This document shows, in pieces, positions 5,823 to 12,081 of a DNA stretch of 64,000 bases. Each line of letters opens with the position of its first letter. The first letter of the stretch is position 1. Source of the DNA: Candidatus Marinacidobacterales bacterium. GTDB lineage: Bacteria > Acidobacteriota > Vicinamibacteria > Marinacidobacterales > SMYC01. The stretch lies in the NCBI GenBank assembly GCA_965224085.1, contig CBDCYI010000009.1:384001-448000 (forward strand), written 5' to 3'. The notes under the pieces are model-generated. The model saw only the letters and a program-made list of their open reading frames with translations. It did not search any database and was not told the origin of the DNA. The position numbers and the translations under genes are program-made.

Positions 5823-6083
5823 ATGAACCACACGATTTTTCAGATTTTGTTGAGTCTCAATGACGATCCGCGAGACGCCGACGGCGTCCTCGAGGCGATG
5901 CGCACGCTCGGCGGCAAGCAGGCTGTGCCCGCGCTCGCCTCTTTCTACCGGGGGCTCAAAAAGGCCTCGGATTCCGGTTTCATCCGCGTGCTCGACGCCA
6001 CCAAAGGCCGGCGTCGGGGCCGGCCGCGCCAGCGCTACCAGATGACCCGATCGGGACGCTACGCGCTGCGTACGGAAGCCCGG
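5823..6083 (+). pseudogene. PadR-like transcriptional regulator truncated by an IS5-family element
   Basis: FQILLSL...LASFYRGLKK...GFI...RPRQRYQMTRSGRYALRTEAR winged-helix pattern; runs into the IS left inverted repeat at 6084. Confidence 0.7.
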
Positions 6084-7114
6084 TGCCTTGGTGCACAACT
6101 CGCGATCTCGGTCCACAATTGTCCTGTACTCGCGGATACGAGGTTCCCCATGAGCATTTCAAACGCACTCAGCGGAAGTATGTGAAGAAGGCCTATCGCG
6201 TGAGGAATTGGCGTGAATATGAGGCGGGTCTACGCAACCGCGGGAGCCTGACCGTCTGGATCTCGCTCACCGCCGGCAAGCTTGTGAACTGGGACGCGCC
6301 CCGGCCAAGGAGGAGGAAACCGGGCCGTCAACGCAAGTACTCGAACCACGCCATCGAGACGGCTGTCACCCTGGGCATGGTGTTTCATCTGTCGTCTAGG
6401 CAGAGCGAGGGATTGCTGCGATCGTTGTTCGCTCTGATGAAGCTAGACAATGATGTGCCCGATCACACCACGATCTCGAGGCGCAAGGCGAAGCTGGGTA
6501 AGGTCCCCTTCTACCAAGACAAGCAGAAGACGCCGTTGCACATCTTGATCGACAGCAGCGGTCTCGCTGTCCACGCCGGCCAGCTGCGCAGAGCACCAAA
6601 TAGCAGGGACTATCGCAAGCTCCATCTGTGTGTCGACGAGCAGAGTGGCGAAGTCGTCGCCGGCGAGCTGACGAGCAAAAGAGCCCGCGATTCATCGCGG
6701 GTTGCATCGCTTGTCAGACAGAGCGACAGTCCCATCTCATCGGCCAGAGCTGACACCGCATACGACGCCAGCGGCGTCTATGAGGCAATCGAGAATCACA
6801 GCGCTCATCGCTCGCCGAGGGTGCTGATACCGCCGCGCAAGGGCGCCCTGCTCGCATCGGGGCCGGCGAGCAGCCGACAGCGCAATCGCAACATTGCAGC
6901 ACAAGCTCGGCTCGGCAAACGAAAGTGGCACACAGAATCGGGCTACAGCAAACGGAGCAAAGTCGAGACAACGTTCCATCGCTACAAGGCTATCGTGGGC
7001 TCAGCGATGCGAGCGAGAGGGTTGGCGGCACAGAGAGTCGAGGCAAGGATCGGGTGCAAGATTCTCCACACCATGACGGCGCTCGGGATGCCTGATAGCG
7101 AGATGATCGGATGA
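6083..7114 (+). CDS. IS5-family transposase (true start probably near 6140-6180)
   Basis: NWREYEAGLRNRGSLTVW, PDHTTISRR, IDSSGL, RKLHL, ADTAYD, GYSKRSKVETTFHRYK. Confidence 0.92.
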   Translation: MPWCTTRDLGPQLSCTRGYEVPHEHFKRTQRKYVKKAYRVRNWREYEAGLRNRGSLTVWISLTAGKLVNWDAPRPRRRKPGRQRKYSNHAIETAVTLGMVFHLSSRQSEGLLRSLFALMKLDNDVPDHTTISRRKAKLGKVPFYQDKQKTPLHILIDSSGLAVHAGQLRRAPNSRDYRKLHLCVDEQSGEVVAGELTSKRARDSSRVASLVRQSDSPISSARADTAYDASGVYEAIENHSAHRSPRVLIPPRKGALLASGPASSRQRNRNIAAQARLGKRKWHTESGYSKRSKVETTFHRYKAIVGSAMRARGLAAQRVEARIGCKILHTMTALGMPDSEMIG

Positions 7115-7169
7115 TGGGAGTCGGGGCCAAGCGAGCTCTCGGCCTCTATCGGAGTTGTGCACCAAGGCA
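6084..7169 (+). mobile_element. IS5-family (IS903-like) insertion sequence
   Basis: Perfect 18-bp terminal inverted repeats TGCCTTGGTGCACAACTC (6084-6101 and 7152-7169); no target duplication in the flanks. Confidence 0.9.
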
Positions 7170-7535
7170 GCGCGCAAGCGACTTCAGGCATTGGTGTCGT
7201 GGCTCGAGCGAAACGGCTACGACGAAGCTTCCGGAAGCCTTCGTGAAGGGATGGAAGAGACACTCACGGTCGTGAAGCTCGCGCTGCCCGCCTTACTTCG
7301 CCAGTCTCTTGCCACGACGAACGCCATTGAGAATCTCAACGGAACCATTCGCAGAGTATCGAGAAACGTCAAGCGTTGGAAGAGTCCTTCCATGGTTCGC
7401 CGATGGACCGCTCTTGGCGTCGTCACCGCGCAGAAAGAGTTCCGGCGTATCAAAGGCTATCGCCATATGGGCGCTCTCGTTCACGCGCTTAGAAGCAAAC
7501 AGAAATCTCTTGACAGCGATGAGTTTGCTGCCTAA
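7170..7535 (+). pseudogene. IS256-family transposase, C-terminal fragment
   Basis: SLREGMEETLTV...SLATTNAIENLNGTIRRVSRNVKRW...KEFRRIKGY; the 5' part is replaced by the IS5 element. Confidence 0.85.
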
Positions 7536-7559
7536 GAGTATTCACAGGTGCCGCCGCTA

Positions 7560-7586
7560 CCCGACCAAATTCAACAGCGGCCGGGA
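7560..7586 (+). repeat. IS256 right terminal sequence, split by the outer intron (continues as CATCCC at 11513)
   Basis: AAATTCAACAGCGGCCGGGA joined to CATCCC after intron removal resembles an IS256-type end. The left end is absent, so the inverted repeat cannot be confirmed here. Confidence 0.65.
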
Positions 7587-7982
7587 GTGCGCTGGGCTAA
7601 CTGAAAGGAGCCTATGGGTGGAAGTCCAATCCGACCAAAAGTCGTAGCGGACAGGTCGGGACCGAGTCTTGCGGGCGTCGTGGCAACGCGGGGTCCGAAG
7701 CGTAGACAGGGGTCGTGCAGGGTGTGTGAATGTAGCCTCGAAATGCTGAATATCGCGGAAGGCCGAGTTGATTCCCGTCAATGAAGGCAGCATGTGGGCC
7801 ATCGCTATCGCGAGATGGTTACGCTCCGCCGGGGTCGTGGACCACATCACGTACGAAGAGTTCCTTTCGGGACCCAGGAGGTCCGGCCGGGTCCATCGGA
7901 ATGGTCACCGATGGGGGCGTCGCGCAAGGGAAAACCGAAGCGCGGTGCTGAGCTGAGGCCGGAAGTCGGACCGATTCATAGT

Positions 7983-10015
7983 GTGTGCTGGGCAGCGTCC
8001 AGATCAGGAAGGTTGAAGTCCCTCTGGTGCTCGGATGAGGAGCGCCATATCCAAAAGCGGGGGTAACGCCTCGCTGGCCGGGGAACGCGGATAAGGAGAA
8101 CCCTAAACGGGCACGAAGTTGGAAACGATGGCTACTGCCAAGGGGATGTACCTAAGTTCGGGTTCTGTCCACTGGACAACTGGAGGACAGGGTGTCCACC
8201 GCGAGGTGGAATCTGAAGGGTATGCGGAGCAGTACCGGGCCGTAATCGAGGGGGCGACCCCGTTGATGAACCGGTCGGCCAAAGGTGGGGCAAGGTCGAG
8301 CCTGCACTATGGAGGCGAAGGCGTTCTCATTCACCCACCGAATCAAGGTGTTTGCGGACGGCACGGTACGGAAGATCTGGACGTGACCCCAGGAGGGCTC
8401 ATTGGGTTCCCGAGTGGCGTCGGGATAAGCGACCCTATAAGCGAGAGCGAAATGGGAAGTGAAGCCGGGTGAGTCGTCGGACAGCCCAATAGTACCTGAA
8501 GCGCGGTGAAAGTCGTGTGATCGAGAGATCGGCAGCCGAGTGGGCTGGGGAAGGGGGCTGGCAAAGGTGGTTGGTGACAACAAGGATGACAGACGAGTAA
8601 GGGCGATGACGCGGATAAGTTCCTTTAGTGAAAGACCCAGAAGTGATCGTCCGAGGAAACTGTCGGCCTGGTTGAACCCAACGGGTGAGAGGAAGGTCCA
8701 CTCTCTGGTGGACAAGATATACAAGCGGAAGAACTTGGAGCTGGCCTGGAACCGAGTGAAGCGGAACAAGGGTGCCGGTGGCATCGATGGACAAACTCTG
8801 GACGAGTTTGAGGAGCAGCTTGATGCGCACCTCAACCGACTCCATGAGGAGCTCAAGACCGATGCCTATCGTCCACTACCTGTTCGGCAGAAACTCATTC
8901 CCAAGGCTGGACAACCGGGAAAGTTCCGCCCGCTCGGCATTCCGGCCGTTTATGACCGCGTGTGTCAGCAGGCACTGCAGAACCGGTTGGAACCGATCTT
9001 CGAGCAGGTGTTCGATGCCGCCAGCTTCGGATATCGACGAGGAAGATCGACAAAGGATGCTTTACGCAAGATCTGGCAAGAGATCGAAGAGGGTTACGAG
9101 TGGATCGTGGATGCGGATCTTTCCAATTTCTTTGGGACTGTGGACCATGAGAAGCTCCTCGCTCTTGTTGCCAAGCGAGTGTCGGATGGTCGCGTCCTTC
9201 GTCTTATTCGCAGCATGCTCAAAGCAGGCTGCATGGCGGAGGGGAGACGGCTCCCGACCGAGCAAGGTGCACCGCAAGGCGGTGTGGTCTCACCGATCTT
9301 AAGTAACGTCCTTTTGACTCCGTTTGATCGGGAGATGCGCCATCGTGGCTATCGCCTGACGCGGTATGCCGACGACTGGGTCGTGACATGCTGCACCAAG
9401 GCAGAGGCCCAGAAGGTGCTGGCCGAAGCCCGGATGATCCTTACGACGTTGGGTGTAACCTTGAACGTGGAGAAGACTCGTATCGTTCACGTTGCACACG
9501 GCTTCGAGTTCTTGGGATACAAGATCAAGCGGGGTAGTCGCCCTTTGGCCCTACCCTCACACAAGATCCGTACGGGTGTCCGCAAGGGTGACCTGTACGC
9601 GTACCCTCGACAGAAGTCGCTCCAGCACTTCAAGGATCAGATTCGGCGACGGACCTGTCGCAAAGCTCCTGTGAGTACGCAGCAGCTAATCGACGAGATC
9701 AACCCGGTTATTCGCGGTTGGGGTCTTTACTATCATAAAGCTCACGTCCGCAAGCTCTTCGCGCGTCTCGATCGTTGGATCCTGCGACGTATCTGGTCGC
9801 ATCGGTTCAAACGCTGGCGCTGTCGGGGGTGGAAGCAGCTCCCGGAGCGTCAGCTCTACGATGAGATGGGCCTCGTACGCTTTGTCTTCCTGATTCCTTC
9901 CATCAAGCCGCGATGAATAATCCAACCTTTGTGAAAGCCGGATACGGGAAAACTGTATGTCCGGTTTGAGCGGCGGACGGGGGTCAGCGCTGCGGTGCGC
10001 CCCCTCCGACCCGAC
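7983..10015 (+). mobile_element. Group II intron (inner intron) inserted in domain III of the outer intron
   Basis: 5' GTGTG at 7983; domain V AAGCCGGATACGGGAAAACTGTATGTCCGGTT (~9935-9966); 3' end GACCCGAC; EBS1 ACTATG (8306-8311) complementary to the flanking CATAGT; removal restores TTCATAGTACTGAGGAAGC. Confidence 0.9.
8540..9916 (+). CDS. ltrA: Group II intron reverse transcriptase/maturase of the inner intron (start may be ATG 8606)
   Basis: GAGGIDG, RPLGIP, SFGYR, DADLSNFF, GAPQGGVVSPIL, RYADD, FEFLGY, INPVIRGW; no HNH endonuclease domain. Confidence 0.95.
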   Translation: MGWGRGLAKVVGDNKDDRRVRAMTRISSFSERPRSDRPRKLSAWLNPTGERKVHSLVDKIYKRKNLELAWNRVKRNKGAGGIDGQTLDEFEEQLDAHLNRLHEELKTDAYRPLPVRQKLIPKAGQPGKFRPLGIPAVYDRVCQQALQNRLEPIFEQVFDAASFGYRRGRSTKDALRKIWQEIEEGYEWIVDADLSNFFGTVDHEKLLALVAKRVSDGRVLRLIRSMLKAGCMAEGRRLPTEQGAPQGGVVSPILSNVLLTPFDREMRHRGYRLTRYADDWVVTCCTKAEAQKVLAEARMILTTLGVTLNVEKTRIVHVAHGFEFLGYKIKRGSRPLALPSHKIRTGVRKGDLYAYPRQKSLQHFKDQIRRRTCRKAPVSTQQLIDEINPVIRGWGLYYHKAHVRKLFARLDRWILRRIWSHRFKRWRCRGWKQLPERQLYDEMGLVRFVFLIPSIKPR

Positions 10016-10042
10016 ACTGAGGAAGCTATCGAAGGCAACGAG

Positions 10043-11422
10043 ATGGTGGAGGGAAGGGATCGGCCTGGAGGGAACCCACGGGAGAGGGCTAAGGTCCGGA
10101 CACAGCGCCGGGTCGCCTTACCGCCAAATCTCACGCGGGTGAACGAAGCAGCGAAGCGAGATAGAAAGGCTCGGTTCACTGCGTTGCTGCATCACGTGGA
10201 TCACGAAGCGCTCTATCGAGCGTTTCGTCGGTTGAAGCGCAGCGCAAGCGCTGGTGTCGACGGAGAGACTGTCGCCGATTACGAGAAGAACTTCGTGAGC
10301 AACATCAAGGATCTTTGCTCGCGGGTACACGCCGGTCGCTACCGACCACTACCGGTGCGGCGCGTGTACATTCCTAAGTCGGATGGCGGAAAGCGCCCTC
10401 TTGGCATCCCCGCACTGGAAGACAAGATTGTCCAAGGAGCGGTAGCCGAGGTTTTGAGCGCCGTCTACGAAGTCGATTTCATCGGGTTCTCGTACGGGTT
10501 TCGGCCCGGACGGAGCCCGCACCAAGCGTTGCACGCGCTCCACACCGCGCTCATGACGCAACGCGTGAACTGGGTTCTCGACGCGGACATCCGCAAGTTC
10601 TTCGACTCGGTGGACCACGAGTGGTTGATGCGGATGCTTTCGCACCGGGTCGCCGACAAACGCATCCTTCGACTCATCCGTCAGTGGTTGCGAGCCGGCG
10701 TACTGGAGAAAGGAGAGTGGAGCGAGACAACTGAAGGGACACCGCAAGGGGCAGGTGTGAGCCCGCTCTTGGCTAACGTCTTTCTGCACTACGTTCTAGA
10801 TCTGTGGGTTCATCGATGGCGCCGGCTCGAAGCACAAGGCCGTATTTCCATCGTGCGATACGCTGACGACTTCGTCATGGGCTTCCAGCATCGGACCGAT
10901 GCCAGCAGGATGATGAGAGCGCTCAAGGAGCGACTAGCCCGATTCGGGCTTGCGCTCCACGAGAACAAGACCCGTTTGCTCGAGTTCGGGAGATTACCTT
11001 CCTTGTCACGCGAGCAACGGGGCCTTCGGCGGTGTGCGACGTTCGCTTTCCTGGGTTTCACTCATTATTGTGGGAGAACCCGCGATGGCCGTTTCGTCGT
11101 GAAGCGCAAAACGCAGAGCCAGCGGCTACGAGCCAAACTCAAGTCGCTACGGCTTCGCGCGAAGCAACGTATGCATGCTCCAGTCGCCGTCCAGCATCGC
11201 TGGCTTTGCCAGGTGCTGCGCGGTCACTACGCGTACTACGGACTTCCCAGCAACATCCGCTCTCTCCAATCCTTTTCTGAGGAGGTGACACGGTTGTGGT
11301 TTCGAAGCCTTCGTCGGCGGAGTCAGCGCCGAATGACCTGGCCTCGTTTTCACTTGTTGTTGGAGCGCTTTCCCCTACCAGTCCCTCACCTCACTCCGTC
11401 CCGACTACCTTGCCTTGTCTGA
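10043..11422 (+). CDS. ltrA: Group II intron reverse transcriptase/maturase of the outer intron (start uncertain, must lie after 10015)
   Basis: RFTALLHHV, SAGVDG, RPLGIPALEDK, SYGFRPGRS, GTPQGAGVSPLLAN, RYADDF, FLGFTH, LRGHYAYY; no endonuclease domain. Confidence 0.95.
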   Translation: MVEGRDRPGGNPRERAKVRTQRRVALPPNLTRVNEAAKRDRKARFTALLHHVDHEALYRAFRRLKRSASAGVDGETVADYEKNFVSNIKDLCSRVHAGRYRPLPVRRVYIPKSDGGKRPLGIPALEDKIVQGAVAEVLSAVYEVDFIGFSYGFRPGRSPHQALHALHTALMTQRVNWVLDADIRKFFDSVDHEWLMRMLSHRVADKRILRLIRQWLRAGVLEKGEWSETTEGTPQGAGVSPLLANVFLHYVLDLWVHRWRRLEAQGRISIVRYADDFVMGFQHRTDASRMMRALKERLARFGLALHENKTRLLEFGRLPSLSREQRGLRRCATFAFLGFTHYCGRTRDGRFVVKRKTQSQRLRAKLKSLRLRAKQRMHAPVAVQHRWLCQVLRGHYAYYGLPSNIRSLQSFSEEVTRLWFRSLRRRSQRRMTWPRFHLLLERFPLPVPHLTPSRLPCLV

Positions 11423-12081
11423 TTTCGGGTATACCTTCAGGAGGAGCCGAGTGCGGGAAAGCCGCACGCTCGGATCTGTGAGGGCGAAAGCCGAATGGCT
11501 GAGCTACTCGACCATCCCCGGTTCGACCCAAATCACGGTATTTCATATTTCACCTGCTTGGCTGTAAAGCCGGCATCCACGGTCACCAGTGTGCCGGTCA
11601 TATAGCTGGCATCAGCTGAAGCCAAAAATACAACAACACGAGCAATTTCGGGGATATCCTGAATCTAGTTGAAATCGGTGAGTGACTCCGTTCAGATCGT
11701 CGGTCAAAGCTGGCGATCAAAAAGAAAGGAGCCACCCGGTGAGAGCAGATACGAAGAAGAGAAAGAATGCAACACAGATGCTGAGGGCGACGCAGGAGCA
11801 AGAGTGGTGGGCGGATCAAGTTGTGCATGTTTACCTCTTCTTTCACTTGACGGACGTGGTACAAATGCGCGCTGACCAAGAACTTACGAGAAACTTCTTG
11901 AAGTAGTTTCTGAGCTCCAGCGTGTTCTTGGCGAACGTGACGGCAACGATGAGTTTCCCTTGTCAAGCCTCAGAAGAAATGACACTATCGGCCCCGAGGC
12001 GCGGAGAGTCCCCACGAGCCTTCGCCCCTGAATAGCAATCCATAGAACAGAGCCCTTTTCTGGGGAGAAAGGCGGGTTAAG

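Follow-up and report, generated by a model that had tools for sequence, protein, structure and literature searches.

Group II introns that lie within other group II introns, or twintrons, are known from several organisms. In Thermosynechococcus elongatus, the cited passages of Mohr et al. (2010; PMC2882425) describe F3 introns without an open reading frame (ORF) inside F1 introns, report independent mobilisation of the inner and the outer introns and state the general idea of intron-into-intron homing. For the nested introns of Methanosarcina acetivorans, the relevant part of the review by Zimmerly and Semper (PMC4424553) describes repeated site-specific homing into other group II introns, a 'perpetual homing site'. 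The twintrons of Trichodesmium (PMC4649490) and of Euglena plastids (PMC4424553) are, in the sections cited, likewise introns in introns, in which the inner one must often be removed before the outer one can fold. Here we describe a twintron from a Candidatus Marinacidobacterales bacterium (assembly GCA_965224085.1), located in a 64,000-nucleotide (nt) stretch of contig CBDCYI010000009.1 (positions 384,001 to 448,000, forward strand; hereafter the window, to which all plain coordinates refer). An inner group II intron with its own reverse transcriptase (RT) gene interrupts the stem that we read as domain III of an outer group II intron. Judging from sequence comparisons, we put at roughly 0.82 the probability that this inner element is an autonomous, recently active group II intron and that it belongs to a multi-phylum clade of mobile introns specialised for retrohoming into domain III of other group II introns.

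The locus differs from each of these systems in what is targeted and in how wide the host range is. According to the same passages on T. elongatus (PMC2882425), the conserved site there lies in domain IV between two ORF ATGs, the hosts are closely related introns of a single species, and the inner introns lack an ORF and use the protein of the host; here the site is a domain-III ribozyme motif, the hosts belong to four structural families and occur in several phyla, and the inner intron has its own RT. In M. acetivorans, going by the title of Dai & Zimmerly (2003), the targets are the ORFs of related introns in one archaeal genome, whereas here a domain-III motif is entered across classes. A target in domain IV or in the ORF of a closely related intron, as in these two cases, was not found at the present locus. 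Trichodesmium and Euglena, in the parts of PMC4649490 and PMC4424553 cited, represent single loci or one organelle system in which splicing was shown by experiment, whereas here a lineage-wide target is known from sequence. Clades likewise defined by an unusual conserved target are described, in the cited part of PMC12584367, for IIC introns (terminators, hairpins) and IIB1 introns (start/stop codons); those targets are features of the host genome, whereas here the target is the catalytic RNA of another intron. As far as the cited text goes, the Introduction of that 2025 paper names IIC and start/stop-codon IIB1 introns only as specialised bacterial lineages. Intron-homing introns are already known, with domain IV or an ORF as the target; what appears to be new here is the conserved domain-III motif together with the cross-class host range. 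We found no description of a cross-class, domain-III-targeting lineage in full-text searches of the literature, although older key papers and supplements may contain one. Homing endonuclease genes, inteins and group I introns occupy highly conserved sites in essential genes, which are targets that cannot easily mutate away. Their machinery is different and their targets are cellular genes, whereas here the target is another selfish element.

Empty and filled alleles of two hosts

The initial annotation had placed one group II intron inside another, and every coordinate, flank, pairing arm and loop that it gave was reproduced (Table 1). The insertion point in the outer intron reads TTCATAGT/ACTGAGG (here and below the slash marks the junction), and the inner intron lies between the flanks CCGATTCATAGT (7971-7982) and ACTGAGGAAG (10016-10025). 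The inner RT, whose likely start is the ATG at 8606, is 34% identical to the outer RT, and no endonuclease domain was found in its ORF with Pfam. Whole-genome BLAST recovered seven inner-intron copies that are 100% identical along their 2033 nt, and 11 copies of the 5' segment of the outer intron (host 1), also 100% identical. Six of the host-1 copies are filled by the inner intron and five are empty (four full-length, one truncated); the sole difference between empty and filled alleles is the segment 7983-10015.

The seventh inner copy (C9:853583-855615, with C numbers denoting contigs of this genome) sits in another intron, host 2 (L008, C9:853100-856119). Host 2 has an RF02003-type domain I (120 bits) and a weak domain V/VI match, and is ORF-less, with remnants only of an RT ORF. 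Its junction reads ...GGGUCGGUAGU/AGCGUUGAA..., that is, ...GGUAGU/AGCG, and a paralogue on C4 with 99% identity is uninterrupted at the same site. In all, three host-2 paralogues were located (C4:1590845-1591737, C5:~970707-971463 and C11:1238946-1239513; 99%, ~80% and ~73% identity); they carry the motifs GGTAGT, CGTAAT and CATATT, and none is invaded. Because the inner copies sit in two unrelated hosts, at least two independent insertions have occurred in this genome, at what looks like the equivalent structural position.

The target site within domain III

The arms CCGATTC (7971-7977) and GGGATCGG (10056-10063) pair when a naturally uninterrupted copy is folded to minimum energy. In such a copy of the outer intron, the site falls within the final stem-loop ahead of the domain that bears the ORF and beyond a branched domain II. 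This stem-loop comprises the basal stem CCGAUUC/GGGAUCGG, the strand AUAGUA..., a distal hairpin, the strand GGAGGGAA and the return to the basal stem. The fold energy of the uninterrupted outer intron has a z-score of -0.4, which is not significant, and the fold alone is no proof. The joined flanks of most hosts fold to the same layout with differing basal-stem sequences, again with z-scores that are not significant. We therefore relied on comparative evidence.

The Rfam model RF01998 ('D1-D4-1') matches an uninterrupted copy present in one of the related loci (L046). Its consensus reads AGAAgUCAGCAGA, gGc (three opening positions), CAUAGU (six unpaired positions), Agccgc (six opening positions), ..., six closing positions, GAAG (four unpaired positions) and GgC (three closing positions). 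The upper-case CAUAGU is the 5' strand of an internal loop, the insertion falls at its 3' edge, and we read the stem that bears it as domain III. Across nine natural uninterrupted copies (host 1, the three host-2 paralogues, L046 and four unrelated plasmid introns), a rough alignment contains six predicted pairs, of which five show compensatory changes. The motif [C/U/G][A/G]UAGU also stands just 5' of the RT ORF in five of six unrelated plasmid introns, a small neutral sample; the +1 base is A in four of these and G in one, and the exact C[A/G]UAGU/A is present in three. The initial annotation had taken AUAGUA to be conserved in domain III, which both the RF01998 consensus and five of the six plasmid introns bear out. 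These comparisons indicate that the motif is conserved far beyond one intron family. Domain III supports domain V, according to the passage of PMC4476101 that cites Robart et al. (2014).

Insertion sites of related introns

With the inner RT as query, 11 loci were obtained from species-representative genomes and 67 from metagenomes, 78 together (L numbers denote such loci). Since an RT query ignores the flanks, the sample is unbiased as to target. The genome loci come from a Planctomycetota metagenome-assembled genome (MAG), Singulisphaera (four loci in two genomes), a Myxococcales MAG, Caballeronia, Paraburkholderia, an Ectothiorhodospiraceae MAG, a Gammaproteobacteria MAG and an Acetobacteraceae MAG, so that the relatives span Planctomycetota, Myxococcota and Alpha-, Beta- and Gammaproteobacteria as well as metagenomes. 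Identity of their RTs to the inner RT ranges from 34 to 92% and is nearly always above 59%. Intron ends were placed by BLAST with the first 110 and the last 90 nt of the inner intron; a 5' junction had to include at least 6 nt of flank and a 3' flank at least 40 nt, and the junction counts include the two contexts of the own genome. For 32 loci no 5' junction was captured, owing to a contig end or a shortened copy.

Of the 48 captured 5' junctions, 46 terminate in C[A/G]UAGU, either exact or with one base changed: CATAGT in 21, CGTAGT in 18, CATATT in two, and GGTAGT, CGAAGT, CGTAAT, CACAGT and CATGGT in one each. The remaining two flanks are unrelated (CCTACG in L058, AATGAA in L060). The +1 base is A in 55 of 57 captured 3' flanks and T in two (L058, L075), and the context is of intron type in 32 of 34 non-redundant 5' contexts. 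A site profile built from 37 non-redundant 5' flanks and 47 non-redundant 3' flanks reads C at -6, R at -5, U at -4, A at -3, G at -2, U at -1 and A at +1, with weaker conservation at -21, -18, -16 and -14 and at +7 to +10 (GAAG). A regular expression for the 3'-strand motif matched 43 of the 57 3' flanks. Among the 14 that it missed, eight show GGAG..GAAGG by eye (L011, L012, L021, L025, L037, L063, L064 and L085) three (L058, L060 and L075) are not in domain III, L027 fits loosely, and L010 and L026 are ambiguous. The same junctions occur on plasmids of cultured strains, namely Bradyrhizobium barranii CC829 (pCC829_3), Paraburkholderia hospita mHSR1 and, for the 3' side only, Cupriavidus necator N-1. 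Singulisphaera sp. Ch08 and Caballeronia udeis GAS109 are also cultured carriers of the lineage. The recurrence of C[A/G]UAGU in the 5' flanks of RT homologues that share 60-92% identity, across four host families, is the pattern that the initial annotation had put forward as support for a lineage that homes into the ribozyme cores of other introns; together with the hosts and the changes in the recognition loop described below, it speaks for that proposal.

The inner lineage carries a domain-III motif of its own, which is at most one base away from the target (Table 1); it is CAUAGUA in L011 and CAUAUU in L010. No nesting of one member of the lineage within another was seen among the 46 domain-III insertions.

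Recognition of the target by EBS1

In the window, the putative exon-binding site 1 (EBS1) of the inner intron and the intron-binding site 1 (IBS1) upstream of it form six of six pairs. ACTATG occurs once in the inner intron. In 2033 nt, chance would give about 0.5 occurrences, and the 6-mer match taken on its own is therefore not significant. What carries the match beyond chance is the covariation of the hairpin, the joint change of loop and target, and the precise empty and filled alleles. The hairpin has a 4-bp stem whose inner two pairs covary in 29 relatives: columns 15-27 are CG in 20, UA in five and UG in four, and columns 16-26 are UA in 11, GC in nine and CG in seven. The inner-intron domain I aligns weakly to RF02001 (27.9 bits for the copy in host 2, 30.8 bits for L011; cut-off 32), and this alignment sets ACUAUG in a hairpin loop where RF02001 has an EBS1-type loop.

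The loop is readable in 30 of the 46 loci with a captured 5' junction, of which 26 have no mismatch to their own target and four have one (G-U allowed). Where the target varies, the loop varies with it: ACUACG accompanies CGUAGU (L051-53, L085), AUUAUG accompanies CGUAAU (L041) and ACUUUG accompanies CGAAGU (L033). Unrelated sites with a different EBS1 were seen only in the derived pair of relatives that lie outside introns, and there the loops are refitted to the sites (UUCAUU with AAUGAA, 6/6 pairs, in L060; CGUAUG with CCUACG, 5/6 pairs, in L058). Because their EBS1 loops changed to match the new sites, these two loci confirm the loop-target rule. The pairing of ACTATG in a domain I loop with CATAGT, as first proposed from the window alone, is thus upheld by the hairpin covariation in 29 relatives and by the loop-target co-change; these data show the ACUAUG loop behaving as a true EBS1, with the target choice of the family following the loop. 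Each of the seven inner copies in the own genome occupies domain III of an intron, although 7-mer matches abound genome-wide. The best candidate for a second exon-binding site (EBS2), CUGGC at intron position 92 against GUCRG, fitted 19 of 41 sequences; it pairs two conserved motifs and was dropped.

Diversity of hosts and the RT tree

Host domain I was located with Rfam 80-400 nt upstream of the insertion. A match was obtained in 16 of the 20 loci of one scan and in four of the 11 loci of another (counting RF01998 in L011). The hosts fall into RF02005 (seven: the window, L013, L014, L016, L025, L048 and L077), RF02003 (seven: own host 2, L024, L037, L043, L051, L053 and L061), RF02001 (five: L033, L046, L056, L074 and L083) and RF01999 (two: L036 and L076). 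Host domain V/VI follows downstream of the insertion in at least nine loci, and two hosts are ORF-less (that of L011 and own host 2).

A quick IQ-TREE run was made on 43 RT rows with the outer RT as outgroup; 32 of 77 loci, in which the RT match was shorter than 370 residues or contained stops, and four duplicates were left out. Thirty-nine rows, nearly the whole family, are labelled domain-III targeters. L058 and L060 form one small clade nested within them (SH-aLRT, the approximate likelihood ratio support, 92). A tight clade (support 98, branches 0.016-0.069) includes L043, with an RF02003 host, L046, with an RF02001 host, and L034, which has the same RT sequence as L036, a locus with an RF01999 host. 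This clade thus spans three host families, which means that near-identical inner introns occupy hosts of differing structure.

Further intron pieces around the twintron were observed on three metagenome contigs. In L046 (127-213 and 824), an uninvaded RF01998 domain III lies 640 nt upstream of the invaded one; in L051 (4132-4273), a second RF02003 domain I lies 70 nt past the 3' end of the inner intron; and in L024 (24-114, 4362-4452), identical domain V/VI matches stand on either side. The three contigs are likely to hold deeper or tandem intron nests. L024 also has an Acido-Lenti-1 RNA match (RF01687, 234-279, 47.2 bits, cut-off 37) that lies between the 3' end of one intron and the host intron next to it.

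RNA-library contigs

A 533-nt contig from RNA library X15 joins 7982 to 10016 exactly. X11 and X15, both sponge metatranscriptomes, also yielded short contigs identical to parts of the RT genes of both introns (7300-11800). Read depth is highest over the conserved EBS1 region (8206-8356), and the many variant letters there indicate that relatives from other organisms pile up. Since such libraries can hold DNA and empty copies exist, these contigs show neither transcription nor splicing. No excision joint of the outer intron was present among the contigs of the searched read runs. It is reasonable to suppose that the outer intron would have to wait for removal of the inner one. The stronger wording of the initial annotation, that the host can fold and splice only after the inner intron has spliced, is perhaps too strong, because domain III is an effector domain and not an essential one.

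The outer intron and its insertion-sequence setting

The domain I of the outer intron is of the RF02005 type (7621-7844, 140.9 bits). Its RT ORF, when listed as 9995-11422, opens within the inner intron; the first ATG 3' of the inner intron lies at 10043. UCCCG (7773-7777), as read from the sequence and from the loop in the Rfam match, is a candidate EBS1 of the outer intron, opposite CGGGA (7582-7586) as IBS1. A possible stem, CCGCCG/CGGCGG, lies directly 5' of the outer intron in the inverted repeat of an insertion sequence (IS), and class IIC was considered; the class comparison, in which S. meliloti pSymB stood at 35.5%, yielded no class assignment.

The IS is IS256-like (Mutator family), and in the window its transposase is left only as a C-terminal fragment (ORF 7155-7535). 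Just upstream, ORF 6083-7114 has DDE_Tnp_1_5/DDE_Tnp_1 domains (Pfam), and it seems that a second IS has inserted into the IS256-like transposase as a further nesting layer. The outer intron occupies both terminal inverted repeats of the IS256-like element, 7 bp from the tip (...CGGGA/CATCCCC; in the window at 7540-7586 and 11513-11519), and head-to-head pairs of outer introns, 1446 bp apart, are present at three loci (genome contigs C4, C5 and C11). A pattern scan of the genome for IS ends returned ten occupied, two empty (C4:~895320 and C7:~299) and one other; the empty ends read ...CGGGACATCCCC, and the IS 5' flank is common to ten intron copies and the two empty ends. On the 3' side, CATCCCC opens 12 of 12 flanks, which then diverge, with the exception of two C5 copies that have identical flanks. 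The locus is thus made of three mobile-element layers: the inner intron in the outer intron in the inverted repeats of an IS256-like element.

Positions -6, -8 and -10 upstream of the outer intron (7575-7581 in the window and ten other copies) vary among the IS copies, the variants before GGGA being AGCGGC, TCCGGC, GCCGGC, GCCGCC and TCCGAC, while neither the remaining repeat nor the intron differs. This stretch could perhaps form alternative stems with GCCGCCGCU.

Table 1. Features of the nested introns and of the adjoining insertion sequence, with positions in the window
Feature	Position	Strand	Basis or remark
IS256-like right end: transposase C-terminal part and terminal inverted repeat	7155-7586	+	Transposase_mut, E 1.7e-6 (Pfam); reaches the outer-intron homing site (5' exon ...CGGGA)
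Outer group II intron	7587-11512	+	GTGCGC at start, CTCGAC at end
Outer-intron 5' segment: domain I, domain II, domain III 5' strand	7587-7982	+	Rfam, fold
IBS1 of the inner intron, CAUAGU; 5' strand of the host domain-III internal loop	7977-7982	+	C7977 closes the basal stem
Inner group II intron, complete	7983-10015	+	GTGTG start, CCCGAC end; canonical 5' GUGYG / 3' AY ends
Inner-intron EBS1 hairpin: stem GCCU/AGGC, loop GCACUAUGG; EBS1 ACUAUG at 8306-8311	8300-8316	+	Covariation
Inner intron's own domain-III motif, AAUAGU/A	8488-8494	+	Alignment of 10 lineage members
Inner-intron RT/maturase ORF	8540-9916	+	RVT_1 1e-42, GIIM 1.4e-15 (Pfam)
Inner-intron domains V/VI	9933-10015	+	RF00029, 41.3 bits, cut-off 40
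Remaining host domain III: A(+1), distal hairpin, GGAGGGAAG strand, basal-stem 3' strand GGGAUCGG (10056-10063)	10016-10066	+	Fold of uninterrupted copy
Outer-intron RT ORF	10043-11422	+	RVT_1 4.6e-39 (Pfam)
Outer-intron domains V/VI	11442-11512	+	RF00029, 53.2 bits
Last 7 IS bases, CATCCCC; outer-intron 3' exon	11513-11519	+	Sequence past here varies by copy

Discussion

The proposed mode of entry follows from the pairing described above and from the known mechanism of group II introns. The ACUAUG EBS1 pairs with C(A/G)UAGU, the 5' strand of the conserved domain-III internal loop, and the A at +1 would presumably be read by EBS3. The intron would then enter by reverse splicing into DNA, and, because no endonuclease domain is present, priming of the cDNA at replication forks seems probable. 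While occupied, the host would be impaired, and precise splicing of the inner intron would restore the host ribozyme. Because the needs of the host ribozyme keep the motif constant, one intron could enter hosts of at least four structural families.

Several observations weigh against specialised homing into domain III. The genome holds 145 CATAGTA, 425 CGTAGTA and 306 GGTAGTA, and seven bases are too few for the specificity seen. No consistent EBS2 emerged from a 41-sequence domain-I alignment in which 5-nt windows were compared with 5'-flank offsets -7 to -18; the protein, by reading J2/3 and the flanking stems, or DNA structure may provide the extra target recognition. Five loops are of the AGUAUG type, and the two of them with a captured junction, L036 and L061 (the latter read by eye), have one mismatch, a G-G at -2. 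The 3' flanks of L010 and L026 look unlike domain III, and that of L027 fits loosely only. When the 9-mer of each host was compared with its own 3' flank and with those of other hosts, a basal-stem helix of at least six pairs was found in 74% of own and 43% of mismatched combinations (mean helix 6.2 versus 5.4; 23 hosts), a modest difference, because the stems are G/C-rich in all hosts. In the own genome, four full-length and one truncated host-1 copies and the host-2 paralogue stay empty despite matching sites, and the six host-1 insertions may not be independent events. The joint seen in the X15 contig also occurs in runs X2 and X3 (kind unrecorded) and in the empty genomic copies, and is no sign of splicing. 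Finally, the outgroup branch of the RT tree is very long, which leaves the root and the order of events unsure.

The possible dependence among the host-1 insertions bears on the idea that the twintron is a single inherited or co-mobile unit and that one old domain-III insertion was carried along as its host family diversified, in which case there would be no lineage that aims at domain III. The six identical twintrons of the own genome could indeed copy one event, by retromobility of the composite unit or by transposition of the IS. We nevertheless regard this history as very unlikely for the family: the hosts, some of them ORF-less, come from four Rfam domain-I families, near-identical inner RTs are shared by hosts from three of these, one and the same genome has precise empty alleles for two different hosts, EBS1 follows local site variants, and a mismatch between the inner and host trees is suggested by the RT tree and the host families. 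The short motif and the missing EBS2 bear on the view that recognition covers about seven bases (CRUAGU/A), that insertion is wide and that genic copies are purged, so that the apparent specialisation is a selection filter. Other mobile elements are the usual location of group II introns (cited parts of PMC7306698 and PMC12584367), which fits this view. Against it, 46 of 48 junctions are at the same structural intron position and none is intergenic or in an IS or prophage, which would be equally harmless; the other ~860 matching 7-mers of the own genome are all unoccupied, and the flanks are moderately conserved at -21, -18, -16, -14 and +7 to +10, though this may reflect host constraint. We consider such a filter an improbable account of the pattern.

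A position inside a ribozyme domain would also tie the activity of the host to splicing of the inner intron, and the host intron is present in both inverted repeats of the IS, so the inner intron might be retained for a switching or braking effect on the host intron or its IS. Nothing points to selection for this role, empty copies exist alongside filled ones, and the cross-phylum pattern resembles selfish spread; a regulatory or mutualistic insert accordingly strikes us as scarcely credible. We thus favour the reading of the inner element as one member of a clade specialised for domain III. We also lean, by a little, towards a further step, namely that the clade is an obligate cross-phylum hyperparasite, that the site variants (CGUAAU, CGAAGU, CAUAUU), the EBS1 changes and the empty paralogues with a variant at -2 are traces of an arms race, and that occupancy throttles the host intron and the IS. 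If so, the host range of such a parasite would extend across intron classes, and its target site would itself be mobile and multi-copy.

The pipelines used to catalogue bacterial introns set twintrons aside, according to the cited parts of PMC4028801 and PMC8919778. Because of this exclusion, the lineage has probably been under-counted. If our interpretation is correct, these introns would represent a new target strategy for a retroelement, in which the constrained motif of another ribozyme is recognised and not a feature of the host genome. They would then offer a natural system for the study of conflict between selfish elements, of the tolerance of group II introns to interruption of domain III and of ribonucleoprotein targeting beyond EBS1.

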